Source of the DNA: Phormidesmis sp.
GTDB lineage: Bacteria; Cyanobacteriota; Cyanobacteriia; Leptolyngbyales; Leptolyngbyaceae
DNA: 64,000 nt
Reading direction: 5' to 3'
Assembly (NCBI GenBank): GCA_965248535.1
Contig: CBDFJR010000005.1
Location: 2,048,001 to 2,112,000 of the forward strand
Shown here: piece after piece, positions 10,923-43,791 of the stretch
Layout of the letters: each line of letters begins with the position of its first letter
How positions within the stretch are numbered: the first letter of the stretch is position 1
The notes under the pieces: model-generated
Told to the model about the DNA's origin: nothing
What the model saw: the letters and a program-made list of their open reading frames with translations, nothing else
The model's database searches: none
Position numbers and translations under genes: made by a program

Positions 10923-11030
10923 TTGTGTGATCTAGGGTTTGATCGTTGAATACATGCGTTCTGCCTTCTCTCTGCAACGATCGTCGAACTTGAGATGTGT
11001 TCTCTTGCAACTTCAAGGTAGCGTTAGTCA

Positions 11031-15579: not shown

Positions 15580-16980
15580 ATGGCGATGATCATTGCAGGA
15601 GAACGCAGCGGAGTCGGCAAAACCACCGTCACGTTGGCGCTGTTAGCCGCGTTGGAGCGTCGCAGTCAGGCCGTGCAGTCGTTTAAAGTGGGCCCTGATT
15701 ATATCGATCCGATGTTTCATCGCCATGTGACAAAACGGGCGTGTCGTAATCTTGATCCGGTTCTGACCTCAGAAGATTATGTACAGCAGTGTTTTGCTCA
15801 ACACAGTCAAACTGCTGAATATTCCTTAATTGAGGGAGTCATGGGCTTGTTTGATGGAGCCAGCGGATCAGATGATTTTGGCAGCACGGCTCACGTCGCC
15901 CGACTGTTGGATTTGCCCGTTTTGCTGATTCTAAATTGCAGTAGTTTGGCACGATCGATAGCCGCGATCGCCCATGGTTATCGCAGTTTTGATCCGCGTG
16001 TTGACGTTGCGGGAGTCGTGCTCAATCGAGTCGGCAGCGATCGTCATTTAGAATTACTCACCGCCGCTTTAGAGCCGTTGAATCTGCCCATTTTGGGGGT
16101 TTTGCGTCGTCAAGATGACATTACAATCCCCGATCGTCATTTAGGGTTGGTGCCCACCGCAGAGCTTGAGAATCTAAATTCGCTGCTCGATCGCTTGGCT
16201 GATTTAGGAGAAACCTGCTTCGATTGGTCGCGATTGTTGCCCTTACTCAGCAGTGAACATATAGAGAAAGAAGAGTCTAAAGCTCAACCTTCAACCTCTA
16301 AAATTCGCGTTGCTGTTGCTTACGATTCTGCATTTAGTTTTTATTATGCTGACAATCTAGATTTGTTAGAACAACTTGGTGCAGAACTGGTTTATTGGAG
16401 TCCATTAAACGACTCTGCATTGCCAGAAGGGACGCAGGGATTATATTTTGGGGGTGGATTTCCAGAAGTGTTTGCAACTGAATTGGCGAACAATCACTTG
16501 GCGCGATGTGCTGTTAAAACTGCCATTCAATCTAATATGCCGACCTATGCCGAGTGCGGCGGACTGATGTATCTATGTGAACAAATTGTTGATTTTGCTG
16601 GACAATCTCATCCGATGGTGGGCATCTTACCCACTACAGCAATCATGGGGAAAAAATTAACGTTGGGCTATCGGCACGCCACCGTGATGCAAAATAGTCT
16701 AATGATGAACAAGGGCGATCGGGCGTGGGGTCACGAATTTCACCGATCGACCTTAACTCACGAGTCAGATCAGCCCCTTTTCAATCTTGAAGGCTATCAC
16801 TCCGGCATTCCCCTTAGGTCAGAGGGCTGGCAGTGTTACCAAGTTCATGCGTCCTATACTCACTTACATTTCGGCGCACAGCCAGAGTTTCTCAAGCGAT
16901 TTTTGCGCCAATGCTCACAGGTTAGGCTCACGCCTCTGCAAAAAACGAGCGAGAGCCACCAACGATCGATCGTGCCCTGA
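15580..16980 (+). CDS. cobB: Cobyrinate a,c-diamide synthase (CobB/CbiA)
   Basis: SGVGKTT, FKVGPDYIDP, EGVMGLFDG, RHLGLVP, AECGGLMYL, GHEFH. Confidence 0.95.
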   Translation: MAMIIAGERSGVGKTTVTLALLAALERRSQAVQSFKVGPDYIDPMFHRHVTKRACRNLDPVLTSEDYVQQCFAQHSQTAEYSLIEGVMGLFDGASGSDDFGSTAHVARLLDLPVLLILNCSSLARSIAAIAHGYRSFDPRVDVAGVVLNRVGSDRHLELLTAALEPLNLPILGVLRRQDDITIPDRHLGLVPTAELENLNSLLDRLADLGETCFDWSRLLPLLSSEHIEKEESKAQPSTSKIRVAVAYDSAFSFYYADNLDLLEQLGAELVYWSPLNDSALPEGTQGLYFGGGFPEVFATELANNHLARCAVKTAIQSNMPTYAECGGLMYLCEQIVDFAGQSHPMVGILPTTAIMGKKLTLGYRHATVMQNSLMMNKGDRAWGHEFHRSTLTHESDQPLFNLEGYHSGIPLRSEGWQCYQVHASYTHLHFGAQPEFLKRFLRQCSQVRLTPLQKTSESHQRSIVP

Positions 16981-19626: not shown

Positions 19627-22600
19627 CTACTCAACGCCTTCGATCTTGTCCTCAACTTCTTGATACAACTCGCGGAGTTTATCGAGATTCTCTTCGCTGG
19701 TTTCCCAATATCCGCGACCATTGGCTTCTAGCAATGTCGTCACCATTTTACGGAACGAGTTGGGATTGAGATCTAGCAATCGCTTTTGCATTTCATCATC
19801 TTTGATGAACGTGTCATTCGCGTCTTCATAGATCCAATTGTCAACCGCTCCTGCTGTGGCTGACCAACCCATTGTGTTAACCAATCGCTTCGACAATTCG
19901 CGCACGCCTTCATAGCCGTGACTCAACATTCCCTCATACCATTTGGGGTTGAGTAGTTTTGTCCGCGCATCCAGTCGCACCGTTTCCGAAAGGGTTCGTA
20001 CTTGGGCGTTTGCAGTCGTCGTGTCAGCGATGAACGAAACGGGCTTTTTGCCATCATCCCGCAGGCGAGACACAATTTTGGTCGGGTCAGAATCGTAATA
20101 GTGAGACACATCCGTCAACGAAATCTCAGACGAATCGAGATTTTGGAAGGTGACATCCGCCGTTTTAAGAGCCGCCTCAAAAATCTTGCGGTCTTGCCCC
20201 ATCTCACCTGGATTGTCTGACGAAAACGCAAACGACTTGCGCGCCAAATACATATCCTGAAGTTCTGATTCGTTCTCCCATGTGCTGTTCTCAACTGCCA
20301 AATTAATATTCGACGAATAAGAACCCGACGCATTAGAGAAGACGCGAGTCGCCGCTTGACGCAGGTTAATACCCATCTCTTCAGACTGCTTGATCGCGTG
20401 TTTACGAATGAAGTTCATTTCTAGCGGTTCATCGGCTTCGGCTGCCATTTTGACTGCCCGATCGAGCAAGTTCATCTGATTGATAAACAAGTCGCGAAAC
20501 ACCCCCGAACAGTTAACCACGACATCAATGCGAGGGCGACCCAACTCTTCTAGGGGAATCAGTTCGACTTTATTGATGCGTCCCAGCGCATCGGGAAGCG
20601 GACGCACACCGACCATCCAGAGAATCTGCGCGAGAGATTCGCCATAGGTTTTGATGTTGTCGGTGCCCCAAAGAACGCACGCGATCGTTTCGGGATATTG
20701 ACCGTCATTTTCAGAACATTGACGCGCTAAGAGACGATCGACGACCACTTTCGCAGATTTCACCGCCGCCGCCGTCGGAATAGATTGCGGATCGAGGGCG
20801 TGAATGTTCTTACCCGTCGGCAACACATCGGGGTTGCGAATCGGATCGCCACCAGGGCCAGGGAGAATATATTCACCCTCCAGCGCGGTGAGCAACGCAC
20901 CTAATTCGTTATCGGCAATGACCTGCTTTAAGCAGAATTCCAGGTACTCAAACAGAGGCTTGATTTGCTCGACATTCACCTTGGGGTAGCCTGCATTGTG
21001 CAAGGATTCGATCCAAGGCTCTTTCTTGCCCATGTTGAAGAAATTGAGCTTCGTCACCTTTGAGACGCGCCCATCAGCATCGGTTTGAGCTTTGACCATT
21101 GCGGCCACGGCTTCACGAGTCGCCAACGTGATATCTTGCAGCAGTTGCACGTCAGCGAGAACGCCGCGATCGCTGCCTTGATAAACATCCTCCATGTCAC
21201 GTCCAACGCTATTAGCAATGATGCGAGTCAAACTCACGACATCATCTTCAGGACGATCAAGACTCGCAATATTGACTAACGTTGCAACAGCTTCTTCAGC
21301 GCTCGGCGGCTTGCCAATCACGTGTAACCCACAGGGCAACAGACGCGATTCAATCTCCATCAGTTTGATGTAGACCTTGCCAATCACGCTATCTCGTTCT
21401 TCGGCTGTGAGTTCTTTAGCGCTGACCTCCGGCAAGGTGATGTCTTTGTCTAGATTCACAATGCGGCACTGATCTACGATCGTGTCCACAATTTGAGCGC
21501 CGCGCCCCGTATCTTTTAGCGTTTGGTAAGACGCAACCAGATCGCCCAATTCCTTCAAACCCTTATACAGTCCAGCATTCTCGGCCGGAGGGGTTAAGTA
21601 GCTAATGGTTTCTGCATAAGAACGGCGTTTAGCGATCGTCGCCTCAGATGGGTTATTCGCCGCGTAGTAATAGAGATTGGGAATCGTGCCAATCAAACTA
21701 TCAGGGAAACAGTCGCCCGACATCCCGATCTGCTTACCGGGCATGAATTCTAACGATCCGTGAGTCCCAAAGTGCAGCACGGCATCGGCTTTCCAGATTT
21801 GCTCTAGATAAGTGTAGTAAGCCGCAAACCCGTGATGAGGACTCGCTGATCGTGAGAACAACAACCGCATCGGATCGCCTTCATACCCAAAGGTTGGCTG
21901 CACTCCGATAAACACATTGCCGAACTCTTTACCGTAGATCAACAAGTTCTGACCGTCGGTGTTGAGATGCCCCGGAGCCGCACCCCACGAAGGAATCAGC
22001 TTCTCGTGATAAGGGGTGAGTTCTTCATATTCCGGCACCGACATCTTGTAGGCGATGTTGAGTTCGGGGCTATTGTATTGTGCTCTCGCATCGTGCAGCA
22101 CTTCTAGCATCAGCGCTTCTGCCGATTCGGGTAGCGCTGGCACGTCGTAACCGTTGTGCTTTAGCGACTCCATCACTTTATAAATGGAGCCAAACACATC
22201 TAGATAAGCAGCAGTGCCGACATTACCTTTGTCAGGCGGAAAGCTGAAAACGGTGATCGCGACTCGCTTGTTGAGCTTGGGTTTGCGGCGCAGACTTGCC
22301 CACTTCATCGCCCGTTGCGAAATGGCTTCAACGCGATCTTGCAGGGCGATCGCTTTCCCGGTGTTGCCATCTCGACCCGATAGAATAATTGGCTCGATCG
22401 CGCCATCTAACTCCGGCAGCGCAATCTGCAACGCCACTTGAATCGGGTGTAAACCAAGGTCGCTATCCTGCCATTCTTCCGTCGTTTGGAAGACCAGCGG
22501 CAACGCCACCATATAGGGACGATTTAACCGAGTCAGAGCCTCGATCGCTTTAGGATGATCCTGTCGCGCCGGACCGCCGACTAGGGCAAACCCCGTCAGC

Positions 22601-23610
22601 GAGATCACGACATCCACGATCGAGGCATCCCCTCTAATCGGATCGTAAAAGAATGCTTCTACAGGCTTTGAGAAATCTAAACCGCCTGCAAACACCGGAA
22701 CCACCCGTGCGCCCATCGACTCCAGTTCCTGCACCATTGAGACATAGTGCGCGTCATCTCCGGTGACTAGGTGCGTTCGTTGCAGCACCAAGCCAATGCA
22801 GGGCGCTAAGGGATCTTTTAAATCTGAAGAGATATCGGTGCGCGAGTTAAACCAGTTGAGATATTCTTTGACATCCTCATACATCTCAGGTGCGAGCGGA
22901 TGCCAGATCCCTATATCTGGGTAGGTAACGGGATCTTGATACGCCAAGTCACCTGTGGTTTTGATGCCTTTAAACACATAGCGATCGGTGAGCATCAGCA
23001 GGAAGTTCTCTAAGTTTTCCTGAGATCCGCCGAGCCAATATTGAAAGCTCAACATAAAGTTGCGCGCATCTTGCGCCTTATCCATCGGCAAATATTTCAG
23101 CACTTTGGGCAAGGTTTGCAGCAGCTTTAGCATTCCATCCTGAAAACCAGCGCCCGATTTTTCTTTGCGCTTTTTCATGAACTGCGCGATCGCACTCTTT
23201 GACTGCCCCAACTGCGCCATCGAAAAACTGCCCATCTTATTCAGGCGCATCACCTGCGGCATCGATGGGAAAACCACCGCAACATCCAAGTGATCGCGAT
23301 AAGGCTCAACGGCAGCCACCAGTTTATCGGCCAGATCTTCTAAGAAAATCAGCGAGGCGATAAAAATATTGGCTTCAGAAACATCTTTTTTGAAGTTTTC
23401 ATAGTTTGTGGAATCGCGCAATTCTTCAATCAGATAGCCACTGATCTCGATCGCCACATTGGGATGCGCTTTGTTAATCGAGCGAACGGCGGCAGAGAGA
23501 GCACTTTGATATTGTGGCTCTAGCACGACGTAAACCACCTTCACGAGCGACCGACCCTGAAGATTGTCGGGCGAGATGTGTCTAATGGTGGGCTTGACGT
23601 GGGTGAACAT
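19627..23610 (-). CDS. chlH: Magnesium chelatase subunit H
   Basis: MFTHVK start, [26 protein letters not shown], ...VEDKIEGVE. Confidence 0.98.
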
Positions 23611-23895
23611 GCGGTCAGACTCCTTGAAGGGCGTGTTCTCTGGGGGTAAATCGGCATGGAGCATAAGACCCAGACAAGCAACTCTCGTTGCCTCAGGGTT
23701 GAGACTCAGGCTGACGATAAATCAGAAGCGGCTTTCAAACTAAGGGCAGCTCTGTGAAGAAAGATGAAGCCAGGATTTGACTCAGCGATCGCCAACAGCA
23801 ATTTATCTACATATGTCTTTTTACCAGAAAAAGCCCACCAGAAAGGCATTGTAGGAAATAACTGACACAATTTGATAAAAAACCAGCGCGATCTA

Positions 23896-26875: not shown

Positions 26876-27268
26876 CTAAGATGCTTCATCCTCTTGCCGC
26901 TCAACTTGACGCAGGTGAATGTGCTTCCGTCCCAGAGAAATTTCAAACTCATCGCCGGGGTGCAGTTCCATTTGTTTTGTGTAGGCAGCACCAATCAACA
27001 AGTTCCCATTAGATTGAACGCTGATTCGATAGCTAGCGCTGCGCCCACCACGCCCGTTGGTGTTTTGTCGCCCGTCGAGTTCAATTCCTTCTGCATCGAT
27101 CAACGCATTGAGGAACTTCATCATATTGACTCGCTCAACCCCGTTTTTAGTCACGGTGTAGTAGCCACACTCACGCGCCTTTTCCTCTTTGCTAAGAGTT
27201 TCTAGCTCTTTTACTTTTTTGAGAAGGGTTTCACCGATAAGAGGCTCAATCTTTTTCTTTTTAGTCAT
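26876..27268 (-). CDS. Cyanobacterial AbrB-like regulator, cyAbrB2/CalB clade
   Basis: CGYYTVTKNGVERVNMMKFLNAL, GRSASYRISVQSNGNLLIG. Confidence 0.92.
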   Translation of the reverse strand: MTKKKKIEPLIGETLLKKVKELETLSKEEKARECGYYTVTKNGVERVNMMKFLNALIDAEGIELDGRQNTNGRGGRSASYRISVQSNGNLLIGAAYTKQMELHPGDEFEISLGRKHIHLRQVERQEDEAS

Positions 27269-27717
27269 CAACTTGAGTCTGAAATAATGACAATGAGTTT
27301 GCTTGACTTGACCTTGCTAACTTGCTTTCAGAAACTTTTCCTGACTCAATGTTAGCCGTTTGACTCATATTACACTGATGCTGTGATTTTTTTACATCCG
27401 ATTTTTCAGAAACTTGCCAAGTCAATCGAGACAGATTTCAAGACACTTCAATGCTCATTTTTTAAATCAGAGGCTTGCAGAGAAATCTAGTGAATAATGG
27501 GGTTTTCTATCGATGATGCGCGTCGGGTTACATTTCTTCAAACCCACTCTGTTGATCAATTAGCAATTTGATCTTTGTCATTGAATGCAGCCTAGAGAAT
27601 TCAACTAATAAGATTTGACTAATGGAAACCATGAGCTTTTTGCGAGTGTTTATTGCACTGGGTTGAAGACAACTATTGGCCATTTGCGCGCGGGTTGCTT
27701 GAGAATCTAACGTTCAG

Positions 27718-29495: not shown

Positions 29496-30113
29496 TTAGA
29501 CGGTGGGCACCGCGTAGTAAATAATGGCGAGAAATTGAATCGGTAGCTCAATCAGCCTTTCGGGGCCGTGAGGCACCTCTCCTCGAAAGCTTAAAGAATC
29601 GCCTGGCTCTAACAAATAGGTGTGAATTCCGTGACGGTATTCTAGTTTGCCTTGCAGCAGGTAAAGAAACTCAATGCCGGGATGCTCAAACGTCGGAAAC
29701 ACCTCAGACGCATCATCCATGGTGATCAAAAACGGCTCAAATAACTTCGTTGGGCCCTGATCGTAGGCCAACAAATGATAAGTGTGTCCGCGTTTTGTGC
29801 CGCGTCTGACGACTTCCATGCCCTCGCCCTGCTTGACCAACTGCGCGCCGCCTGCTGGCATATTGTAGTTACGAAACAGCGTTGATAGAGACACCCCTAA
29901 CGCCGTGGCCAACCTCCCGATCGTGTCTAAGCTGGTCGCAGTTTGAGCATTTTCAATTTTGGACAACATGCCGCGAGAGATGCTTACCTGTTCGGCGACT
30001 TCAGCGATCGTCAAGCCATGTTTTTGTCGCAGACCTCGAATGGCGTTGCCTAAATATCGCTCTAAAGAGTTACTAGAAAGGGCTTCTGTGCTTTTTGCTG
30101 GAGCTTCTGTCAT
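29496..30113 (-). CDS. XRE-family HTH regulator with cupin domain
   Basis: LTIAEVAEQVSISRGMLSKIEN; cupin HPGIEFLYLLQG...LEPGDSLSF...PHG. Confidence 0.92.
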   Translation of the reverse strand: MTEAPAKSTEALSSNSLERYLGNAIRGLRQKHGLTIAEVAEQVSISRGMLSKIENAQTATSLDTIGRLATALGVSLSTLFRNYNMPAGGAQLVKQGEGMEVVRRGTKRGHTYHLLAYDQGPTKLFEPFLITMDDASEVFPTFEHPGIEFLYLLQGKLEYRHGIHTYLLEPGDSLSFRGEVPHGPERLIELPIQFLAIIYYAVPTV

Positions 30114-30165
30114 GATAATTTTTCTCGATCGCCTTGCTTAATGTGAATCATAGCAAGAAACTTTG

Positions 30166-30194
30166 TTGACAACTATGAAACTTCGATCCATGAT
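30166..30194 (+). promoter_or_regulatory. Putative sigma70-type promoter of the mgd operon
   Basis: TTGACA-N17-CATGAT; AGGAG RBS before 30235. Confidence 0.5.
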
Positions 30195-30234
30195 GGTTAC
30201 CAAAGTTTTCTGGTGAAGACTTGCAGGAGTTGTC

Positions 30235-31473
30235 ATGCCATTCGGTCTCTTAAAATTTGCTCTGTCAAAAAATCATCCCGAACCGCGAATGTTTCGTCAA
30301 CCCGATCGTTTAAAGTCAAACTACGACGCGGTGATCATTGGCGGTGGTGGGCATGGATTGGCAGCCGCTTATTATTTGGCACGCGATTATGACATGAAAA
30401 ATATCGCCGTGCTAGAAAGAGGCTATATCGGCGGAGGCAACACAGGACGCAACACAACGATTATTCGATCGAACTATCTCACGCCCGAAGGAGTGAAATT
30501 CTATGATGAATCAGTGCGACTATGGCAAGATTTATCACAAGACTTCGATTTAAACCTGTTCTACTCCAATCGCGGGCACTTCACGCTAGCGCATACAGAT
30601 TCATCAGTGAGAACAATGCGATGGCGGGCAGAAGTCAACAAGCATTTTGGCATCGATAGTGAGCTGGTTGATGCGGCTGACGTGCAAAAAGCCTGCCCAA
30701 TGATGGACATGGACTGTGGCGGTCATCCCATTTTGGGGGCACTTTATCACGCTCCGGGCAGCATTGCTCGTCACGATGTGGTGGCGTGGGGCTATGGTCG
30801 TGGGGCTGATTTGCGCGGGGTCGAGATTCATCAACAAACCGAAGTGTTAGGGATTCAGATTGAGTCCGATCGGGTCACGGGCGTTGAGACTTCGCACGGC
30901 ACAATTTCGACCCCTCGCGTGCTTTGCGCGGTTGCCGGATTTACACCCCGAATTTTAGAGAAAGTGGGGTTACGATCGCCCCTCTCGATTCACCCTCTGC
31001 AAGCGATGGTTAGCGAGCCGATGAAGCCCTGGCTTGACCCGATTATTGTCTCTGGCAGTCTGCACGTCTATGTCAGCCAAACAGCGCGGGGAGAACTCGT
31101 GATGGGTGCCTCGCTTGACCCCTATGCACTGCATTCCACGCGATCGACGCTCGACTTTGCCGAAGGACTGGCCGCCCACATGCTAGAGCTATTTCCGTTT
31201 TTGTCCCCTGTCAAAGTGGTGCGGCAGTGGGCAGGCATGGCAGACATGACTCCTGATTTTGCGCCGATTATGGGCAAAACGGCGATCGGGGGATTCTATC
31301 TAGATGCAGGCTGGGGCACTTGGGGGTTTAAAGCAACGCCTGTCTGCGGTAAAACGATGGCCTATACCGTGGCCCACGATCGCAATCATGATCTGATTCA
31401 AGATTTTGGGCTGTCTCGATTTGAGAAGTATGAACGAGTGGGTGAAAAAGGCGCAGCGTCAGTAGGGCACTAA
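30235..31473 (+). CDS. mgdA: N-methylglutamate dehydrogenase subunit A (SoxB-like, FAD)
   Basis: IIGGGGHGLAAAYYLA, GNTGRNTTIIRSNY, GWGTWGFKATP, EKGAASVGH; clustered with gmaS/mgs. Confidence 0.87.
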   Translation: MPFGLLKFALSKNHPEPRMFRQPDRLKSNYDAVIIGGGGHGLAAAYYLARDYDMKNIAVLERGYIGGGNTGRNTTIIRSNYLTPEGVKFYDESVRLWQDLSQDFDLNLFYSNRGHFTLAHTDSSVRTMRWRAEVNKHFGIDSELVDAADVQKACPMMDMDCGGHPILGALYHAPGSIARHDVVAWGYGRGADLRGVEIHQQTEVLGIQIESDRVTGVETSHGTISTPRVLCAVAGFTPRILEKVGLRSPLSIHPLQAMVSEPMKPWLDPIIVSGSLHVYVSQTARGELVMGASLDPYALHSTRSTLDFAEGLAAHMLELFPFLSPVKVVRQWAGMADMTPDFAPIMGKTAIGGFYLDAGWGTWGFKATPVCGKTMAYTVAHDRNHDLIQDFGLSRFEKYERVGEKGAASVGH

Positions 31474-31475
31474 CC

Positions 31476-31733
31476 ATGAAACTTATGACTTGTCCGGTTA
31501 ACGGTTCACGATCGATTTCAGAGTTTATTTATGGGGGAGAGTTGCGATCGATGCCTGACCCAAACATGGTGACAGATGAGGTTTGGGCAGATTATGTGTT
31601 TCATCGCAACAACACTCCAGGAATTAAATGTGAATGGTGGTGTCATGTGCCCAGCAACACTTGGTTTATCGCTGAACGTGACACGCTAACCGATGATATT
31701 TCATGCACATATCTGTGGGGTGAGGTGATATGA
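31476..31733 (+). CDS. mgdB: N-methylglutamate dehydrogenase subunit B (SoxD-like)
   Basis: MTCPVNGSRSISEFIYGGE...EWWCH...WFIAERDT. Confidence 0.85.
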   Translation: MKLMTCPVNGSRSISEFIYGGELRSMPDPNMVTDEVWADYVFHRNNTPGIKCEWWCHVPSNTWFIAERDTLTDDISCTYLWGEVI

Positions 31734-34663
31734 ATCAACGCAGACTGCCGCCGATCTCAGGAGAATGGATTGATCGCCGCTGCCCGATCGAGTTCACCTT
31801 TGAAGGCACTCGCTTTAGGGGATATGTGGGAGACACGATCGCCAGTGCGCTGTGGGCATCGGGTCAGCAGATTTTAGGACGCAGTTTTAAATACCACCGT
31901 CCGCGTGGGGTTTTGAGTTTTGCTAATCATGATATAAATTCCCTCATGCAGTCTGGGCAGAGGTTGAATATCCGGGCAGATGTCACACCGTTAGAAGACG
32001 GAATGACGCTCTCGGCAATCAATACCTTTGGCGGAGTGATGAGCGATCGGGCAAGTGTCCTTGATCTTTTATCTCCGTTTCTTCCGGTTGGTTTCTACTA
32101 CAAGGCGTTTAAAAACAAGCGGTTATTCCCTGTTTGGGAGCGCTTGATTCGCACCATGACAGGACTCGGACAAGTAGACTTCTCAACACCTCATAATCGG
32201 ACGGCAAAACGCTATGATTTTTGTGATCTCTTAATCGTAGGAGCAGGAGTATCAGGACTCTCAGCGGCTCTCTCAGCGGCAGATCGGGGGGCAGACGTGG
32301 TAGTGGTCGATGAGAATGCGAGAGCAGGTGGATCGGGTCACTATCAATTGGGAAATGACACACTCCGACTTGAGAGAACAAACGACTTATTAAACGCTGT
32401 TGATAATCATTCGAGAATTCGGCTCTATACCCAAACGCAAGCAGCAGGCTACTACGCCGATCGCTGGATTCCATTATTGGATTGCGATCGCTTAACTAAA
32501 CTTCGAGCAAAAGCAGTGATTGTGGCAACGGGAGCCTATGAACAACCTGCCGTGTTTCATAATAATGATTTGCCAGGTGTCATGCTGGCGAGTGCCGCGC
32601 AACGACTCATTTATCGCTATGCGGTCAGGCCGATGAATCGAGTTGTTGTCTTGACGGCTAATGCTGATGGCTATCGAGCGGTCATGGACTTGATAGCTCA
32701 TGGAGTCACGATCGCTGCCGTGGTTGATCTTAGAGAGAGTTCGTTGAACAGTGAGATGGCCCGATCGCTAGACCAAACCAACATTCCGATTTTCTTGGGA
32801 TGCTGCGTCTATGAGGCGAGGGCCAATCCAGGTCGAGATGGCGTATCGGCGGCGGTCATTTGCCCGATCGACGTGAACGGTAACCCGCAAACTGGATTTA
32901 GGCAAACGATCGCGTGTGACGGCATTGTGATGAGTGTAGGCTGGGCACCTGCGGCAAACTTGCTCTATCAGGCAGGCACTAAGATGCGGTTTGATCGGCG
33001 ATTGCAGCAGTTTGTTCCAGAGGTTTTGCCGTCTGGCGTGTTTGCCTGTGGTCGGGTGAATGGCGTGTTTGAGTTTGATCAAAAGCTAATAGATGGTCAG
33101 CGATCGGGGCTAGAAGCCGCCGCTTACTTGGGATTGGCAGAGCGCATTGAGGTCACAATCTCGCCCGAACCAGAATCGCCGTCCCATCCGTGGGCGATCG
33201 TTGAACATCCGGCCGGAAAGAATTTTGTAGACTTCGATGAAGACTTGCAGTACAAAGATTTTGTTAACGCTGCTCAAGAAGGATTTGATAACATTGAGTT
33301 GCTCAAACGATATACAACCGTTGGAATGGGAGCGAGTCAAGGAAAACACTCCAATATGAATGCGCTGAGAATCTTAGCGCGCATCACTGGAAAAACTCCC
33401 GGCGAAGTGGGAACAACGACATCACGGCCATTTTTTCATCCAGTTCCGCTTTCGCACTTAGCAGGGCGAGGCTTTACGCCTGAGCGACGCACCCCACTAC
33501 ACAGCCGTCACGCTAGACTGAATGCTAAATTTATGCGGGCAGGAATGTGGCAACGACCGGACTATTATGCCCGATCGGGTAAAAGTCGCGAAGAGTGCAT
33601 TCGGCTCGAAGTTCAGGCAGTCAGGCAGCAGGTGGGGATCATAGATGTTGGCACGTTGGGTAAATTTGAGATTCGGGGAGCAGATGCGGCAGAGTTTTTA
33701 GAGCGAGTTTATGCCGGACGCTATCGCACGATGAAAGTCGGCACTACGCGCTATGCTCTAATGCTGGATGAAACAGGGGTGACGATCGACGATGGCATCA
33801 TCGCTCGGCTCGGAGCAGAGCATTTTTATTTCACCACGACGACCTCAGGCGCTGCAACTATCTATCGGGAGTTGTCTCGACTAAATACGCTGTGGCGATT
33901 AGACTGCGGAATTGTGAATTTAACAGGGGCACGATCGGCGATCAACCTTGCCGGACAATATTCGCGTGATCTGTTGTCTAAAGTGATGGACTTGGATCTC
34001 TCTAGCGTTTCATTTCCTTATCTCGCTGTTCGTGAAACTCATATTCAAGAGATTCCAGTGCTGTTAATGCGAGTTGGCTTTGTAGGTGAGTGGGGCTATG
34101 AGATTCACGTTCCGGCATATTATGCTCTAGCGTTGTGGGATCTGTTAATGAAATCAGGACTTGACTATCAGATTTGTCCGTTTGGCGTAGAAGCGCAGCG
34201 TCTTTTGCGACTCGAAAAAGGACACCTGATTATCGGTCAAGACACTGACGGGTTGACGACTCCATTTGAGGCAGGGCTAGAGTGGGCGGTGAAGATGGAC
34301 AAACCTTTTTTCATCGGTCAGCGCAGTTTACAGGTTCTGTCAAAGCGCCCCGTTAAACAAACCTTAATCGGCTTCTTGCTCGATCCAAATTTTCAAGGAA
34401 CGCCACCGCAGGAGTGTCATTTAATCATTGATCGGGGTGAGATGGCAGGCCGCGTCACGAGCGTTGCCTTTAGTCCCAGTCTTAACCGCTATATCGGACT
34501 CGCTTACGTGAACCTAGAATTAGCAACGATCGGCGATCGCGTCTCGATTCGACTATCAGATGGCACGATCGTCGCCGCAACCGTTGCCCCAACTCCATTC
34601 TACGATCCCGATCATTTACGTCAGCGAGAAGACCTGTTTCAGCGTCAAGAGGTGGCGGTATGA
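31730..34663 (+). CDS. mgdC: N-methylglutamate dehydrogenase subunit C (SoxA-like, GcvT/THF-binding C-terminus)
   Basis: GRSFKYHRPRG, VGAGVSG, KRYTTVGMGASQGK, DVGTLGK, LRLEKGH. Confidence 0.87.
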   Translation: MNQRRLPPISGEWIDRRCPIEFTFEGTRFRGYVGDTIASALWASGQQILGRSFKYHRPRGVLSFANHDINSLMQSGQRLNIRADVTPLEDGMTLSAINTFGGVMSDRASVLDLLSPFLPVGFYYKAFKNKRLFPVWERLIRTMTGLGQVDFSTPHNRTAKRYDFCDLLIVGAGVSGLSAALSAADRGADVVVVDENARAGGSGHYQLGNDTLRLERTNDLLNAVDNHSRIRLYTQTQAAGYYADRWIPLLDCDRLTKLRAKAVIVATGAYEQPAVFHNNDLPGVMLASAAQRLIYRYAVRPMNRVVVLTANADGYRAVMDLIAHGVTIAAVVDLRESSLNSEMARSLDQTNIPIFLGCCVYEARANPGRDGVSAAVICPIDVNGNPQTGFRQTIACDGIVMSVGWAPAANLLYQAGTKMRFDRRLQQFVPEVLPSGVFACGRVNGVFEFDQKLIDGQRSGLEAAAYLGLAERIEVTISPEPESPSHPWAIVEHPAGKNFVDFDEDLQYKDFVNAAQEGFDNIELLKRYTTVGMGASQGKHSNMNALRILARITGKTPGEVGTTTSRPFFHPVPLSHLAGRGFTPERRTPLHSRHARLNAKFMRAGMWQRPDYYARSGKSREECIRLEVQAVRQQVGIIDVGTLGKFEIRGADAAEFLERVYAGRYRTMKVGTTRYALMLDETGVTIDDGIIARLGAEHFYFTTTTSGAATIYRELSRLNTLWRLDCGIVNLTGARSAINLAGQYSRDLLSKVMDLDLSSVSFPYLAVRETHIQEIPVLLMRVGFVGEWGYEIHVPAYYALALWDLLMKSGLDYQICPFGVEAQRLLRLEKGHLIIGQDTDGLTTPFEAGLEWAVKMDKPFFIGQRSLQVLSKRPVKQTLIGFLLDPNFQGTPPQECHLIIDRGEMAGRVTSVAFSPSLNRYIGLAYVNLELATIGDRVSIRLSDGTIVAATVAPTPFYDPDHLRQREDLFQRQEVAV

Positions 34664-35313
34664 TGCGCCATAGCCCCAATCACGATCAGCTTCAAGCCCT
34701 CAACGGCACTTGGCGCACCATTAACGGAATGCCCTCCCTCGTTTCTATTCTTGGAGATGAGCAGACTGTAGCGCAGTTGAGCATCGCTGATCTGTCATTT
34801 CTCACCCGATTTGGAGTCAAAGGAGCTGGGGCCGCCGCTTGGCTTGAGAGTCAGAATCTTGAGGTGCCCGATCGGGCCAATACCTGGAAATTTCTCGCAG
34901 ATGGCTCAATGATCGCCCGTCTCGGCCTAACAGAATTCTTGATCGAAGATAGCCTCCACAGCAGTTTTGCGCTGCGATTGGCTGAGGCGTGTCAGTCAGT
35001 TCCGGCGCAGGTGTATCCAGTGTTGCGACAAGATGCCGCGATCGTGCTGTGCGGTACAGCGATTCCAGATCTGCTGCGGCAAACTTGTAGCGTTGACGTT
35101 CAAGCGTTCTCTCTTGCAGAACAGCCAGTGATTTTAACCTTGATGGTGGGCGTTAGCGTGACCATGATTCCGATCGCGTCTGATCGCTATCGAATCTGGT
35201 GTGATGGCACATTTGGATCGTATTTGTGGGAGACATTGGTCACGATCGTGCAAGAGTTGGGCGGGGGAGTGGTCGGTGCCGATCGCTTAATCTCAACTCA
35301 GACTATTTTTTAG
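34660..35313 (+). CDS. mgdD: N-methylglutamate dehydrogenase subunit D (SoxG-like)
   Basis: ADLSFLTRFGVKG, ARLGLTEFLIED, YRIWCDGTFGSYLW; ATGA coupling to mgdC. Confidence 0.78.
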   Translation: MMRHSPNHDQLQALNGTWRTINGMPSLVSILGDEQTVAQLSIADLSFLTRFGVKGAGAAAWLESQNLEVPDRANTWKFLADGSMIARLGLTEFLIEDSLHSSFALRLAEACQSVPAQVYPVLRQDAAIVLCGTAIPDLLRQTCSVDVQAFSLAEQPVILTLMVGVSVTMIPIASDRYRIWCDGTFGSYLWETLVTIVQELGGGVVGADRLISTQTIF

Positions 35314-35325
35314 TAGAGGACAGTC

Positions 35326-36654
35326 ATGACACCAGCAGAAGCGACTCAATTTCTAGCCGAGCATCAGATCAAATTTGTTCTAGCGCAGTTTGTCGATATC
35401 CACGGAGCCGCCAAAACCAAAGCCGTTCCTGCCTCACACTTTGAGGATATTTTGTGCCCCGGTGCAGGCTTTGCGGGGTTTGCCGTCTGGGGCTTGGGCA
35501 TGAAGCCTAACAGTCCTGATTTTATGGCGGTGGGCGATTTGTCAACGCTCGCGATCGTGCCCTGGATGCCCGGATTTGCCCGCATTGTCTGCGTTGGTTA
35601 TGTCCACGGCAAGCCCTACGCCTACGACACCCGCTTTATCTTACAGCAGCAGATCGAACGCCTGACCCAAAAAGGCTGGGTGCTTAACACCGGAGTCGAG
35701 CCAGAATTTGTGCTGCTTCGCAAAGATGACCAGGGCAAGATTCAGCCCTACGACCCGACCGATACCCTCGATAAACCTTGCTATGACTATAAAGGACTAT
35801 CTCGCAGTTTGACCTTTATTGAGAAGCTGGTGACGAGTCTGCAAGCGGCTGATTTTGATGTCTATCAGATCGATCACGAAGACGCAAACGGTCAATTTGA
35901 AATTAACTACACCTACACAGATTGTTTAACGACCGCCGATCGCTTCATCTATTTCAAAATGGCAGCGTCAGAAATCGCGAAGGAACTGGGGCTAATTTGC
36001 TCGTTTATGCCCAAACCGTTTGCCAATCGCACAGGCACCGGAATGCACATGCACCTGTCACTGTGGGAAGGTGACACGAATATCTTTGCAGATGACACCG
36101 ACCCACGAGATTTAGGACTGTCAAAACTGGCCTATCATTTCATGGCAGGGCTGCTTGCTCACGCTCCCGCCCTAACCGCGATCTGTGCGCCGACGGTGAA
36201 TTCTTATAAACGGTTGGTGGTGGGTCGATCGCTGAGTGGCTCAACCTGGGCACCTGCCTATATTAGTTACGGCGATAACAACCGTTCGAGTATGGTGCGT
36301 GTTCCTGGCGGCCGCTTAGAGTTGCGTCTGGCAGATGGCTCTTGTAACCCATATCTGGCAACGGCGGCCGCGATCGCCGCAGGGCTAGACGGCATCGAAA
36401 AACAACTCGATCCGGGTGAACCGTGGAATGTGAATCTCTATGATTTCTCAAATGCAGAACTGAATGAAAAAGGAATTCAGACCCTCCCACAAAGTTTAAA
36501 AGAAGCGATCGATGCGCTTGCTGCTGATAACGTGATTAAAAATGCGTTGGGCGTTTTGGCTGATGAATTTATTAACCTCAAGCAGATGGAATGGGTCGAA
36601 TATATGCGACACGTTTCTGAATGGGAAGTTCAACGTTATCTAGAATTTTTCTAA
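35326..36654 (+). CDS. gmaS: Gamma-glutamylmethylamide synthetase (GlnT/GS-like)
   Basis: [47 protein letters not shown]; flanked by mgd and mgs. Confidence 0.87.
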
Positions 36655-36659
36655 ATACT

Positions 36660-37556
36660 ATGTGTGGAATTGTTGGACTGCTGGTTAAAAAGCCTGAACT
36701 ACGCAAATCACTCGGCGCAATGATGGTGCCGATGCTGATCGGGATGAGCGATCGTGGCCCCGACTCCGCCGGACTCGCGATCTTTACAGAACTGCTAGAC
36801 GAAGGTCACCGCAAATACAGCCTCTATTCGGGTGATCAAGAATTTAATTGGTCAGAATTGCTCTATAAATTTCAATCTCACTTTGAAGGAGATACGGAAA
36901 TTGACAGTCAAGGGAATCACGCTATCTTGATTGCTAATGCCGATCCAAACTCAGCCAAACAATGGATTAAGCAACACTATCCACACCTATATATTTTGTC
37001 TACAGGCCGAGCCATTAATCTCTATAAAGACATCGGCACGCCTCAGCAGGTCAGCGATCGCTATCACTTCAAATCGCTCCAAGGCTCTCACTTGGTCGGT
37101 CACACGCGCATGGCTACCGAGTCGGCCGTGACAGCCGCCCACGCGCACCCGTTTACGGCGGGCGAAGATTTTTGTCTGGTTCACAACGGTTCGCTCTCAA
37201 ACCCCTACGAGATTCGCCGCAAACTTGAGCCGCAGGGCATCCAGTTTGAAACCGACAACGACACCGAAGCTGCCTGTCGCTTTTTAGAGTGGCGAATGCG
37301 GGAAGGAGATGACCTTGAAACTGCCCTTCAGAAAGGCTTTGAGGAGTTAGACGGCTTCTACACATTTCTCATGGGAACGGCGGATAAACTCGCCCTAGTG
37401 CGGGATGCCTTTGCCTGCAAACCCGCGATCGTAGCCGAGACCGATGACTATGTAGCGATCGCATCAGAGTTCCGATCGCTGGCTCATCTGCCCGATGTCA
37501 ATCACGCCCATCTCTACGAACCTGCACCAGAGGAACTGTATGTATGGACAGTGTAA
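36660..37556 (+). CDS. mgsA: N-methylglutamate synthase subunit A (class II GATase, GlxB-like)
   Basis: MCGIVG, RGPDSAG, GHTRMATESAV, HNGSLSN, NDTE. Confidence 0.88.
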   Translation: MCGIVGLLVKKPELRKSLGAMMVPMLIGMSDRGPDSAGLAIFTELLDEGHRKYSLYSGDQEFNWSELLYKFQSHFEGDTEIDSQGNHAILIANADPNSAKQWIKQHYPHLYILSTGRAINLYKDIGTPQQVSDRYHFKSLQGSHLVGHTRMATESAVTAAHAHPFTAGEDFCLVHNGSLSNPYEIRRKLEPQGIQFETDNDTEAACRFLEWRMREGDDLETALQKGFEELDGFYTFLMGTADKLALVRDAFACKPAIVAETDDYVAIASEFRSLAHLPDVNHAHLYEPAPEELYVWTV

Positions 37557-38224
37557 TCTTTGACTTGTCACAAACGTCTCTACGCGAGGTGAATCAGTTT
37601 CTTCATCACCATGCAAATGGTCAGTCAATCAAGATTATTAACCCTAATGGGGCACATAATATTGCAGTTGGACTTAATTTGCCGATCGCAGTTGAGATTG
37701 CTGGACATGTTGGTTATTATGCTGCGGGAATGAATCAGTTAGCAACCGTGACGATTGACGGCAATGCAGGCACAGGCGTTGCAGAAAATATGATGTCTGG
37801 ACGGGTTCATGTCAAAGGCTTTGCATCTGTCTCAGCCGGGGCTTCGGCCCAGGGAGGGTTGCTCATCATCGACGGCAACGCCAGCCTGCGCTGTGGCATT
37901 TCACTAAAAGGCGGCGATATTGTAGTGGGGGGCAATGTGGGCAGTTTTTCGGCCTTCATGGCCCAAGCCGGACGAATTGTGATTTGTGGAGATGCGGCTG
38001 ACGCGATCGGAGATTCTCTCTATGAAGCGGTGATCTATCTGCGCGGCAACGCAAAATCTCTGGGAGCAGATGCCCAATTTGAGCCGATGTCAGACACCGA
38101 TTATCAGGCGGTCGGTGAGCTACTCGCCAAAGCCGGGTTGTCTCACGACCCCCAAGATTTTAGGCGCATTGCCTCTGCCAAGCGGCTCTATCACTGGAAC
38201 GCCGACGCTAATCAGGAGTATTAA
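37544..38224 (+). CDS. mgsB: N-methylglutamate synthase subunit B (GXGXG/GlxC-like)
   Basis: GYYAAGMN, GVAENMMSG, RCGISLKG, SAFMAQAG, GDSLYEA. Confidence 0.88.
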   Translation: MDSVIFDLSQTSLREVNQFLHHHANGQSIKIINPNGAHNIAVGLNLPIAVEIAGHVGYYAAGMNQLATVTIDGNAGTGVAENMMSGRVHVKGFASVSAGASAQGGLLIIDGNASLRCGISLKGGDIVVGGNVGSFSAFMAQAGRIVICGDAADAIGDSLYEAVIYLRGNAKSLGADAQFEPMSDTDYQAVGELLAKAGLSHDPQDFRRIASAKRLYHWNADANQEY

Positions 38225-38226
38225 CC

Positions 38227-39597
38227 ATGAATCAATCTGAATCGGGTCAATCGTTCTCGCTTGAGGAATCGGCAGGCTACGATCGCCGCATTCTCAACTA
38301 CATTCAAAACGCCGCCGCTCATGGACTGTATGAAATTCGGGGGCTAGGTGCCAAACGTCGATTGCCTCACTTTGATGATTTGGTGTTTCTCGGTTCGTCA
38401 CTGAGTCGCTATCCTCTCGAAGGCTATCGCGAAAAATGCACGACCAAGACAATTCTGGGTACTCGCTTTGCTCAAAAACCGATCGAGCTAGAGATGCCGA
38501 TCACGATCGCGGGCATGAGTTTTGGATCACTCTCCGCCAACGTTAAAGAAGCTCTCGGACTCGCCGCCACCCAAGCCGGAACTTCGACGACAACGGGCGA
38601 TGGCGGCATGACTTCAGAAGAACGGCTGTCGTCTAAAACGCTGATTTATCAATGCCTCCCGTCTCGCTATGGGTTTAACCCAGATGATGTTAGGAGGGCA
38701 GACGCGATCGAGATTGTGATCGGTCAAGGCGCAAAACCGGGCGGCGGCGGAATGCTATTGGGACAAAAAATAAATCCTAGAGTGGCAGAAATGCGAACGC
38801 TACCGGAAGGCATTGATCAACGATCGGCCTGTCGGCATCCTGATTGGACAGGGCCCGACGATCTCACCATCAAAATCCAAGAACTGCGAGAACTCACCGA
38901 TTGGGAAAAACCCATCTACGTCAAAATCGGCGCATCGCGGACGTTTAATGATGTCAAACTTGCCGTTCATGCTGGGGCAGATGTGATCGTCTTGGATGGA
39001 ATGCAGGGGGGCACTGCCGCAACTCAGAATGTGTTTATCGAGCATGTCGGCATTCCGACGCTGGCGGCCCTCCGGTTAGCGGTGGAGGCGCTCGAAGAGT
39101 TAGACATGAAAGGAACCGTGCAGTTGATTGTGTCGGGCGGCATTCGCACCGGGGCAGATGTGGCAAAAGCGCTGGCCATGGGGGCTGATGCGGTGTCGAT
39201 CGGGCAGGCCGTTTTGATGGCGATGGGCTGCAATAGTGAAACTTATATTCAACATGATATACATCACTCAGCGATCGCAGACTACAACGCTTTAGGAACT
39301 GCACCCGGATACTGTCATCATTGCCATACAGGTCAATGTCCAGTCGGAATCACTACACAGGATACAATCCTAGAAAAACGCCTAGAAACTCAAGTTGGAG
39401 CACGACGAGTCAAGAACTATCTACAAACCCTGACGATGGAATTAACCACGATCGCTCGTGCGTGCGGCAAGCAAAACGTTCATCACTTAGAACGCGAAGA
39501 TTTAGTTGCTCTCACTCTAGAAGCAGCAGCGATGGCGCGGCTCCCCCTTGCTGGAACAAACTGGATTCCGGGTTGGACATCAGGGGCAAATTTTTAA
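38227..39597 (+). CDS. mgsC: N-methylglutamate synthase subunit C (FMN/Fe-S, GlxD-like)
   Basis: PHFDDLVFLGSSLSRYPLEGYRE, GQGAKPGGGG, CHHCHTGQCPVGITTQ. Confidence 0.9.
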   Translation: MNQSESGQSFSLEESAGYDRRILNYIQNAAAHGLYEIRGLGAKRRLPHFDDLVFLGSSLSRYPLEGYREKCTTKTILGTRFAQKPIELEMPITIAGMSFGSLSANVKEALGLAATQAGTSTTTGDGGMTSEERLSSKTLIYQCLPSRYGFNPDDVRRADAIEIVIGQGAKPGGGGMLLGQKINPRVAEMRTLPEGIDQRSACRHPDWTGPDDLTIKIQELRELTDWEKPIYVKIGASRTFNDVKLAVHAGADVIVLDGMQGGTAATQNVFIEHVGIPTLAALRLAVEALEELDMKGTVQLIVSGGIRTGADVAKALAMGADAVSIGQAVLMAMGCNSETYIQHDIHHSAIADYNALGTAPGYCHHCHTGQCPVGITTQDTILEKRLETQVGARRVKNYLQTLTMELTTIARACGKQNVHHLEREDLVALTLEAAAMARLPLAGTNWIPGWTSGANF

Positions 39598-39651
39598 TAT
39601 TATGTATTCATTCATCCAATCGTTGTAACCTAACTCACCCATGTTTTGACT

Positions 39652-40170
39652 ATGACCTACTTTGAACAGACTGCTAATCTTCCACTCCTCTCATCATCGA
39701 CCTACACAATGTTAACGGCGCTGTTAAACTTTGTGTGTGCGACGACTGACTGGGAATATGGCGAATCCTGGATTCCTAATGAAGCTCTCAACACGCTAGA
39801 GTTAAGCCCTGCCTGGTGTTTAAACAATCAAATGGAGGTTCATCGAGCGATCGCGTGGTCGCAGTTTCAGTTGTGCAGTCAGGCCTTTGTGTTAAACCAA
39901 AATGAAGGCTTGCCTGGGCGGGTTTGGGCCTCTCAAAAACCAGAATGGATGCCTGATGCATCTACTCCGTCAGAAACCTATTTTTTGCGCCATCAAATCG
40001 CTCAAGCCTTTAGCGTCAAAGCAGGATTTGGAGTGCCTATTTTGGTCGATTCTAAAGTGTTAGCGGTGTTGGTTTTTTTCATGTCTGTAGCGCGATCTGA
40101 AAACCCCGATCTGATTCAGCGCACTCAAGCGGCGATCGCAGAATTCAGACAATCCTCTCCCTACGAGTAG
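39652..40170 (+). CDS. Stand-alone GAF domain protein
   Basis: WEYGESWIP, GLPGRVW, AGFGVPI...VLAVLVFF. Confidence 0.8.
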   Translation: MTYFEQTANLPLLSSSTYTMLTALLNFVCATTDWEYGESWIPNEALNTLELSPAWCLNNQMEVHRAIAWSQFQLCSQAFVLNQNEGLPGRVWASQKPEWMPDASTPSETYFLRHQIAQAFSVKAGFGVPILVDSKVLAVLVFFMSVARSENPDLIQRTQAAIAEFRQSSPYE

Positions 40171-40199
40171 GATAGAAGAGCAGACCACTGGAGAATCTC

Positions 40200-40418
40200 A
40201 TGGCGGGCTATCAAAAAATCGAGTATCGCATCGGCAAAGATGGCAAAGTTGTTGAAACAGTCCTCAACGGGTCGGGCCCAACCTGCGCCGATTTGACACT
40301 AGAAATCGAACACGCGATCGGGACTGTTGAATCACAAAAACGACTGCCGGAGTATGACGAAGGCAACGAATTATTAATCCTAGAGGAGGCTCAAACGCTG
40401 CATCAAGGTGAAGTTTGA
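40200..40418 (+). CDS. DUF2997-like small protein
   Basis: IEYRIGKDGKVVETV...G.TC...IE.AIG.V. Confidence 0.7.
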   Translation: MAGYQKIEYRIGKDGKVVETVLNGSGPTCADLTLEIEHAIGTVESQKRLPEYDEGNELLILEEAQTLHQGEV

Positions 40419-42949: not shown

Positions 42950-43086
42950 AGACCTGTTGTGAAATAGCGTTCAAAATCGCTGAAACCTTTATGCTGTCTA
43001 GCTTCTAGAGCTTTTTCGGTAGATCGCTCGAAACGATTGCTCCGACTGGCTTCCAGGCACTTGTGATCTTATTTCGCAACAACTCT
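42950..43086. mobile_element. 137-bp MITE inside the IS1 transposase 3' end
   Basis: TIRs AGACCTGTTGTGAAATA / TATTTCGCAACAACTCT; ATT duplication at 42947-42949 and 43087-43089. Confidence 0.85.
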
Positions 43087-43791
43087 ATTGTAGTAGTGGA
43101 TAAAGTTCCAGATAGCCTTGATGTGATTGTTCAAGTTCTTCGAGAACGACAAGGTTTTGCGAACTAACCGAGAGACTCGTTGGCGTAAGGTATTGTTGAA
43201 TCGCTCAATGTAACTAGTCAGCCCACTGTCTTTGCCTACCGCTCGATGTCGCTGACGTGGGATCGCAACTGGGTAGGACACCCAGAAATCGCCATAACAG
43301 ACCGCACATTGCCGGTACACTGCTGGCAACGAGCGCCAAAGCGCTTTGGCGGATTCTCCTGATCGGTCGCCGATATAACAGCCGACGATCTCGCGCGTTT
43401 CGACATCCAAAGCTAGCCAGACCCACTGTTCGTTGCCTTTGTCATCCACAAATGACCACAACTCGTCCATCTGCACTGTCAGTCGTCGTCGAGACTTCGG
43501 TTGCACTTGCACTGGTTGAGGAACGCTCGCATAGTAGTCATTCACGTATTGCTGGAGCCAGCTTTCACTGATTTGCAAACTTCGAGCAATCCCAGCGAGC
43601 GGAATCTTTTCCAGAAGCATTCGATCAATCATCGATTTAGTTTCGTCACTGATCCGTCTCCACTTGGGATGTTCCACGAACTGTCGTCCACAGTCGCGAC
43701 ATTTATAGTTCTGATTCCCATGCCGAGTCGTACCGTTCTTGTTAATGTCATGGGAGCCACAGTTTGGACAGTGCAGCAGCGGTTTGATCAT
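43069..43791 (-). CDS. IS1 transposase (single InsAB ORF, C-terminus altered by the MITE)
   Basis: CPNC..KNG..CRDCGRQF, MDELWSFV, IERFNNTLRQR, RKTLSFSK. Confidence 0.92.
   Translation of the reverse strand: MIKPLLHCPNCGSHDINKNGTTRHGNQNYKCRDCGRQFVEHPKWRRISDETKSMIDRMLLEKIPLAGIARSLQISESWLQQYVNDYYASVPQPVQVQPKSRRRLTVQMDELWSFVDDKGNEQWVWLALDVETREIVGCYIGDRSGESAKALWRSLPAVYRQCAVCYGDFWVSYPVAIPRQRHRAVGKDSGLTSYIERFNNTLRQRVSRLVRKTLSFSKNLNNHIKAIWNFIHYYNRVVAK

Follow-up and report, generated by a model that had tools for sequence, protein, structure and literature searches.

Can a cyanobacterium draw nitrogen from methylamine through the N-methylglutamate (NMG) pathway? The question is raised by a locus at positions 29496-39597 of a 64,000-nucleotide stretch of the genome of Phormidesmis sp. 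(the window, on whose numbering all cluster coordinates are given), which holds nine open reading frames (ORFs): a divergent regulator gene and an eight-gene operon, mgdABCD-gmaS-mgsABC (Table 1). The original prediction had described eight tightly coupled genes and a divergent XRE-cupin gene, and all nine ORFs were found where it placed them. The operon genes are co-oriented and contiguous, and their junctions are gaps of 2 to 12 bp or overlaps of 4 to 13 bp. We read the locus as a complete NMG pathway operon with its own regulator on a Phormidesmis-like chromosome, serving to scavenge methylamine for nitrogen, and give this reading a probability of about three in four.

The nitrogen sources listed for cyanobacteria are ammonium, nitrate, urea, cyanate and certain amino acids, to which guanidine was recently added; workers in the field employ methylamine to trace ammonium uptake. 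No report of NMG pathway genes in a cyanobacterium was found in the literature searched, among the matches listed, with several key primary papers outside its coverage; within the same limits, these searches agree with the earlier statement that no functional characterization in cyanobacteria is known. A Trichodesmium preprint, in the portion available, describes a genome devoid of most known trimethylamine catabolism genes, and a 2025 paper, also available in part, records that a foreign gamma-glutamylmethylamide synthetase (GMAS) had to be introduced into Synechocystis. The locus is a case of a known pathway in a host group for which no report was found. If the reading is correct, a methylamine-catabolising lineage adds a nitrogen source for cyanobacteria, 14C-methylamine uptake assays become complicated in such strains, and phototrophs join the sinks of a climate-active amine.

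The ligase and its partner enzymes

Compared with all solved structures, window GmaS is closest to 9qur_A, annotated as 'glutamate--methylamine ligase' (713.8 bits over residues 5-442); the second-best structure, 7cql_A, scores 363.6 bits, and all true glutamine synthetases (GS) score at most 283 bits. 9QUR is the GMAS of Methylovorus mays No. 9 (MmGMAS), biochemically characterized according to the accessible part of PMC12588301, and 7CQL is the GmaS of Rhodovulum sp. 12E13 (RhGmaS; PMC7948447). In RhGmaS, the ammonium-binding Asp50' of GS is replaced by Ala48' and the catalytic glutamate of the Glu-flap by Trp300, and the catalytic residues are Asp177, Glu186 and Arg312 (PMC7948447). Transferring these residue numbers to window GmaS through the structure-search alignment places an alanine at GS Asp50' and a tryptophan at the Glu-flap glutamate. 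Tyr174, Gln175, Asp177, Glu179, Glu186, Asn188, Tyr191, Arg312, Arg317 and Lys30' of RhGmaS are all retained; among the named residues, only Trp189 differs, being a tyrosine. The genome's own GlnA (TIGR00653, 643 bits), aligned beside GmaS, retains both the aspartate (FDGSS) and the glutamate (PGFEAP). Window GmaS, with both residues replaced, scores 368 bits against the same GlnA family, under the cut-off of 429. In place of these signatures, FAGFA and a six-residue insert ending in tryptophan are found in window GmaS and in all eight relatives aligned with GlnA. The window ligase thus shares with MmGMAS and RhGmaS a full-length alignment, both replacements and the catalytic Asp, Glu and Arg, and differs from them in its cyanobacterial host and at the Trp189 position. 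Its sequence identifies it as a GMAS-type enzyme, for which the corresponding activity is predicted.

The same protein scores 649 bits in NCBIfam TIGR03105, 'type III glutamate--ammonia ligase', above the cut-off of 469.6; this is therefore the name that automatic annotation would probably attach to it, hiding the GMAS assignment, and such a label may explain why the cluster went unnoticed. Elsewhere in the genome, a 724-residue ORF (G000:C5:863988-866162; L003 538-2712, minus strand) weakly resembles the GS catalytic domain (E 9.8e-5). No NCBIfam family matched it at E 1e-30 or better, and its size fits that of a GlnN-type GS, for which it is a candidate.

The four Mgd subunits are sarcosine oxidase relatives and, judged by the NCBI curated cut-offs, not members of those families: MgdA scores 461 bits against TIGR01373 soxB (cut-off 529), MgdB 67.5 bits against TIGR01374 (116.5), MgdC 829 bits against TIGR01372 (1164) and MgdD 39 bits against TIGR01375 (144), and a Pfam search with MgdD gave no match. 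The likeness to heterotetrameric sarcosine oxidase SoxBDAG (TSOX; PDB 2GAG, 1X31) is extensive. TSOX has four homologous subunits, in the same B-D-A-G set, and a folate-binding alpha subunit, likewise represented here by MgdC, which carries a folate-binding aminomethyltransferase (GcvT) domain; MgdA can be aligned from end to end with 2gag_B, the TSOX beta subunit (370 bits), and keeps the ARHD histidine region. A true TSOX that merely stands beside unrelated GS-like and glutamate-synthase-like genes, and that breaks down sarcosine, creatine or betaine, would account for these features. However, all four subunits fall under the family cut-offs, the mgd genes are translationally coupled to gmaS and mgsABC and travel with them across phyla, and the context is one of methylamine genes rather than sarcosine or creatine genes, which leaves this explanation very improbable.

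MgsC matches the FMN domain of the GltB large chain with about 100 bits and is the most conserved protein of the cluster, at 85-94% identity among cyanobacteria. A structure search with MgdA and MgsC turned up no NMG dehydrogenase or synthase structure, and the assignment of MgdABCD and MgsABC therefore rests on domain content and gene context. The longest mgsA ORF begins at 36621, inside gmaS. Because its sequence from residue 14 onward is MCGIVG, with the N-terminal nucleophile Cys, and because tblastn matches to mgsA in relatives start at residues 11-14 of the long ORF, the true start is most likely 36660, with which the gmaS/mgsA overlap vanishes.

The original prediction assigned this gene set to the NMG pathway, and the assignment stands on the sequence evidence: the ligase is closer to the GMAS 9QUR than to any GS, it carries the GmaS-type substitutions, the Sox cut-offs are not reached, and the synteny extends across phyla. 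A grouping with true sarcosine oxidases or other GS-like clades, named at the outset as what would speak against the pathway, is contradicted by the Mgd scores and by the closeness of the ligase to 9QUR.

From these parts, a route can be proposed. Methylamine would enter the cell, probably via a single Amt permease encoded elsewhere in the genome (C5:1789167). GmaS would join it to glutamate with ATP to form gamma-glutamylmethylamide, which MgsABC, by homology and by established knowledge of the proteobacterial pathway, would convert to NMG and ammonium. MgdABCD would then return NMG to glutamate and pass the methyl carbon to tetrahydrofolate (THF) via the GcvT domain of MgdC. Per methylamine, one ATP would be spent and one ammonium and one methylene-THF gained, and the one-carbon unit could be disposed of, or fed into biosynthesis, by FolD (C2:25162) and PurU (C2:1661829; 414 bits, cut-off 286). 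As had been noted, no amt, purU or folD gene adjoins the cluster; none lies in the window, and all three are encoded elsewhere in the genome. Such a route would allow the host to use methylamine as a nitrogen source. Proteobacterial NMG systems differ in their upstream module, as no tmm, tdm or dmm was found in the window's genome, and the organism appears, from its gene content, to hold the monomethylamine module alone.

The same enzymes could instead act mainly on another small amine, such as ethylamine, or on NMG supplied by another catabolic route. The substrates of MmGMAS, the nearest relative with a solved structure, include ethylamine and bulkier amines (PMC12588301, in its accessible part), and Mgd is reported in homarine catabolism (PMC13390433, of which a portion was available). 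Against either possibility, the window cluster has the canonical eight-gene form, all methylamine-pocket residues of RhGmaS are kept in window GmaS, and no extra transporter or oxygenase gene is attached to the cluster. We regard this alternative as improbable.

Residence in the cyanobacterial genome

Relatives were collected by searching one genome per species with the ligase as query, and the best 80 of the 553 stretches found were kept. Ten of these 80 carry cyanobacterial titles and share 78-94% identity with window GmaS; an eleventh, titled 'uncultured bacterium', groups with the cyanobacterial rows and has a cyanobacterial-like density of HIP1 sites (0.63 per kb). Non-cyanobacterial matches among the 80 reach at most 73% identity. 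All eight genes occur in window order in seven of the 11 cyanobacterial loci, the remaining four being interrupted by contig ends, and the same gene order recurs in loci titled Pseudomonadota, Verrucomicrobiota, Spirochaetota, Acidobacteriota and Actinomycetota. The NMG clusters of Methyloversatilis universalis FAM5, Methylocella silvestris BL2, Methylobacterium extorquens PA1 and Ruegeria pomeroyi DSS-3 encode the same set of eight products; compared with these, the window cluster is a single operon in an oxygenic phototroph. The closest named relative of the host is Phormidesmis priestleyi BC1401, whose record is not labelled as a metagenome-assembled genome (MAG), so a culture may be available. 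A downstream Hsp70-like gene is common to the window, P. priestleyi BC1401 and one Phormidesmis MAG, and the cluster therefore sits at the same place in the closest named relatives.

The phylogenetic trees were unrooted and sampled from the 80 closest relatives. In a quick-search GmaS tree of 81 rows, the 10 cyanobacterial rows, the window and the 'uncultured bacterium' row form one group (SH-aLRT 98), nested in a 17-row set with Burkholderiales-type rows (99). The MgsC tree (68 rows) places 11 cyanobacterial rows on one side of a branch (94, unstarred). A concatenated tree was built from five proteins, which occur together at 85% coverage or more in 37 of the 83 loci; with the window, this gave 38 rows, the other loci being excluded. 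Here, eight cyanobacterial rows form one group at 100, with an unclassified proteobacterial MAG next to it (100). A proteobacterial donor is a lead from these trees rather than a finding.

Divergence from P. priestleyi BC1401 was compared inside and outside the cluster. The ratio of nonsynonymous to synonymous divergence (dN/dS) is 0.04-0.33 for all nine genes, with 0.04 for the regulator and for gmaS, and the synonymous divergence (dS) is 0.61-0.87 in the cluster and 0.59 in the flanking Hsp70-like gene. Since the cluster dS lies near that of the flank and dN/dS is low, the cluster has diverged together with its surroundings under purifying selection. Its composition is near that of the genome: against 495 genome windows of 10.1 kb, its GC content is 0.509 (genome mean 0.504), and its tetranucleotide distance falls at the 85th percentile. 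The HIP1 octamer, GCGATCGC, occurs 54 times in the window, where 2.0 copies are expected, and six sites lie in the cluster, at 32484, 34533, 36370, 37054, 37455 and 39271; the three sites reported originally (32484, 34533 and 39271) are thus present, with three more. Across related loci, HIP1 density is 0.084 per kb in total in the non-cyanobacterial ones and 0.47-1.94 per kb in 15 of 18 cyanobacterial ones.

Some HIP1 sites outside the cluster are evenly spaced, at 448, 550, 652 and 754 (every 102 bp) and at 11451, 11521, 11589 and 11653 (about every 68 bp), which suggests tandem repeats, each with a HIP1 copy, at 448-761 and 11451-11660.

The nearest non-cyanobacterial relatives, Burkholderiales-type and an unclassified proteobacterial MAG, raise the question of whether a proteobacterial fragment was misjoined to a cyanobacterial genome during assembly or binning. 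Pointing the same way, the four sequencing runs that match the stretch, none of them an RNA run, gave hundreds of contigs of widely varying likeness, apparently from many organisms. All 30 bins are covered in runs X1 and X2, 28 in X3 and 26 in X4; as the contigs are short and many derive from other organisms, only the bridging of the 3' junction was used. That junction is spanned by a contig with zero differences (38892-40238). The genome has 5.03 Mb and is rated 99.76% complete, and the window is found about 2.08 Mb along a contig of 2.45 Mb. The HIP1 sites and the composition of the cluster likewise speak against an artefact, as does the recurrence of the cluster, followed by its Hsp70-like gene, in P. 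priestleyi BC1401. A misjoin is hardly credible, the least probable of the explanations considered, and the chimeric assembly that the original prediction had raised against itself is opposed by the shared cluster and flank in other cyanobacterial genomes. Its preference for long residence over recent transfer fares well, given dS like that of the flank, near-genome composition, and the spread of cluster-type MgsB in the genus (six of seven other genomes) and order (24 of 90). As far as genome comparison can tell, the data support a cluster that has long resided in one family of filamentous cyanobacteria and is maintained there by selection.

Distribution and clusters lacking gmaS

A survey of cyanobacterial genomes had been proposed as a check. 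With MgsB as the probe, it covered 401 genomes taken evenly across the phylum and 90 genomes of the window's order, which is represented by one family in the collection. MgsB matches occur in six of the 401 genomes, including the window's own, four with at least 77% identity and two with 45-47%, and in 26 of the 90, where 24 share at least 70% identity (among them one partial match at a contig end and another split into two pieces) and two share 44-47%. Cluster-type MgsB at 70% identity or more is thus found in 24/90 genomes of the order versus 4/401 phylum-wide. In the genus, six of seven other genomes match, and the non-matching one is 65% complete. A gmaS match at E 1e-140 or better was obtained in 18 of the 90 order genomes. 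Phylum-wide, the trait is rare; in this family, it is common. The two weak phylum matches (L085 = G158, L086 = G011) lack mgd genes and have only an mgsABC-like trio (38-66% identity); on other contigs, these two genomes encode GS-like proteins with 42-45% identity, and the trio represents a different, uncharacterized module.

In four of the five order genomes whose MgsB neighbourhood was inspected (L084, L087, L088 and L090, from genomes G080, G432, G453 and G424), the arrangement is regulator-mgdABCD-mgsABC, with about 20 to 500 bp from mgdD to mgsA and no gmaS between them. In an 18-cluster tree, the gmaS-less four require four state changes, at least two of them forced by well-supported branches, and are united in 0/200 bootstrap trees. 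Because the four are not one clade, gmaS has, on this tree, been lost or gained more than once. In such clusters, either the synthase takes free methylamine or ordinary GS supplies gamma-glutamylmethylamide. The classical N-methylglutamate synthase (EC 2.1.1.21) is described as using free methylamine. These relatives offer a natural comparison with the window.

The second of these options leads to salvage or detoxification as the role of the whole cluster: GS would trap methylammonium as dead-end gamma-glutamylmethylamide, MgsABC and MgdABCD would recycle it to glutamate, and gmaS would be optional. In classical trapping by GS, methylglutamine is not known to be processed further, whereas the window genome encodes two downstream enzymes. 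The original prediction had called methylamine a non-metabolised ammonium analogue in cyanobacteria; 'not metabolised' is too simple, as ordinary GS makes methylglutamine from methylamine in bacteria and cyanobacteria (PMC10794816, in the part available). This trapping, the basis of the 14C-methylamine uptake assay, has the same first product, gamma-glutamylmethylamide, as the proposed route (same source). Salvage would fit the repeated absence of gmaS just described, and in one gmaS-less genome examined, the best GS-like match elsewhere has 43% identity. Yet window gmaS is under strong purifying selection, with the low dN/dS given above, and is kept in 18 of the 90 order genomes. Free-methylamine use by the classical synthase would explain the gmaS-less clusters without a role for GS, and the two roles are compatible, because recycling too releases ammonium. 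Salvage as the main function is unlikely, although it is the strongest competitor of methylamine scavenging for nitrogen.

Several observations count against the scavenging role or qualify it, beginning with the four relatives that lack gmaS. Frames are split in some relatives: mgdA in L087 (about 16585-16802), gmaS and mgdC in L089 (about 9834-11160 and 11978-15067), and mgdC and mgsA in L090 (about 2202-5299 and 6452-7452). These could be pseudogenes or assembly indel errors, and part of the family may be losing the pathway or be able to do without it. Amines other than methylamine can also serve as substrates of GMAS enzymes (PMC12588301, in its accessible part). With six HIP1 sites, the cluster is below the genome median (10 per 10.1 kb); counts of six or fewer occur in 14.5% of genome windows. 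The NtcA-type motif GTAN8TAC is absent from the control region between the regulator and mgdA, with one match in the window, at 44154, so that nitrogen control is not supported. A genome search for Tdm (trimethylamine N-oxide demethylase) gave nothing at its cut-off and, for flavin-containing monooxygenase (FMO), one weak partial match of 49.8 bits; with no Tdm/FMO route found, any methylamine must come from outside the cell. On the same results, a full trimethylamine pathway in the host was dropped from consideration.

A broader synthesis can be sketched tentatively, and we hold it to be possible rather than probable. A mat-forming cyanobacterial family would have kept the pathway for longer than the age of its genera, with methylamine as a real source of nitrogen and of folate-bound one-carbon units. 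MgsABC and MgdABCD would convert what GS has trapped into glutamate and ammonium that the cell can use, gmaS would be a mere booster lost at least twice, and control would lie with a clade-specific XRE-cupin repressor and its operator, not with NtcA.

Regulator, control region and neighbouring genes

The divergent regulator has a weak PuuR-like match (35 bits, cut-off 211). Homologues with 53-94% identity are found in 36 of 83 related loci, six cyanobacterial and 30 non-cyanobacterial, and the XRE-cupin protein therefore seems to be a conserved companion of the NMG pathway across phyla. The non-cyanobacterial homologues (53-71% identity; for example, L072 at about 7715 and L042 at about 12387) belong to methylamine-cluster loci of Pseudomonas, Thioalkalivibrio, Thiomicrorhabdus, deltaproteobacterial MAGs and others, and in the Pseudomonas loci, the homologue immediately adjoins gmaS. 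In Roseobacters, the regulator described for the NMG pathway is the AraC-type TmaR, unlike the XRE-cupin protein of the window, and SecR is another regulator type described for this pathway (both from sources available in part). No description of such an XRE-cupin regulator was found in the literature on cupin and N-methylglutamate, as far as the available portions of those papers extend.

The control region between the regulator and mgdA contains a promoter-like pair, TTGACA (30166-30171) and CATGAT (30189-30194), separated by 17 nt; with 10 of 12 matches, it is the best of the scanned 11 kb. Around it, three GAAACTTTG-like sites fall within 53 bp, at 30157-30165 (+), 30177-30185 (+) and 30201-30209 (-), and the sole exact copy of GAAACTTTG in the window lies among them. 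An alignment of six cyanobacterial intergenic regions revealed a conserved block here. The GAAACTTTG motif lies upstream of the regulator in all six cyanobacterial loci with a regulator gene (at least twice in four of them) and, outside cyanobacteria, in one of 30 loci, as a single match; a stricter test, three matches within 80 bp, picked out the window alone. The GAAACTTTG sites are a candidate operator that looks specific to this clade. Most likely, the XRE-cupin protein would repress the operon at these sites, which flank the promoter, until an amine or a pathway intermediate binds its cupin domain.

Table 1. Features of the predicted methylamine cluster and its control region (window numbering)
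Feature	Coordinates	Strand	Supporting observation
XRE-family helix-turn-helix (HTH) + cupin regulator, 205 residues	29496..30113	-	Pfam HTH_3 53 bits, Cupin_2 38 bits
Divergent control region, 121 bp	30114..30234	+	between regulator and mgdA
mgdA, predicted N-methylglutamate dehydrogenase subunit, SoxB-like flavoprotein	30235..31473	+	DAO domain 212 bits
mgdB, SoxD-like small subunit	31476..31733	+	Pfam SoxD 95 bits
mgdC, SoxA-like large subunit, 977 residues	31730..34663	+	GCV_T 243 bits, GCV_T_C 65 bits, SO_alpha_A3, Fer2_4
mgdD, SoxG-like subunit (weak match)	34660..35313	+	TIGR01375 39 bits; conserved position in related clusters
gmaS, predicted gamma-glutamylmethylamide synthetase (glutamate--methylamine ligase)	35326..36654	+	GS-like; best structure match 9qur_A
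mgsA, predicted N-methylglutamate synthase subunit, class-II glutamine-amidotransferase-like	36660..37556	+	GATase_6, GATase_7
mgsB, GXGXG-motif subunit (GltB C-terminal-domain-like)	37544..38224	+	Pfam GXGXG 33.6 bits, cut-off 32.5
mgsC, FMN-binding glutamate-synthase-domain subunit	38227..39597	+	Glu_synthase 311 bits

The neighbours of the cluster in the window are ordinary cyanobacterial genes: two of the CobN/Mg-chelatase type, a ClC channel, a cyAbrB-like regulator, an HhoA/HtrA protease, a GAF protein and the Hsp70-like protein. The cyAbrB-type (AbrB-like, PF14250) regulator gene, at 26876-27271 (-), lies two genes upstream of the cluster. An IS1-family transposase gene (DDE_Tnp_IS1 and InsA zinc ribbon) is located at 43069-43791 (-), 3.5 kb downstream, past the GAF and Hsp70-like genes. 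The two large CobN/Mg-chelatase-family genes, at 11833-15498 (-) and 19627-23664 (-), are 4 kb apart, with a CobB/CobQ-like amidotransferase gene between them; the second has a DUF3479 N-terminal domain and looks ChlH-like.

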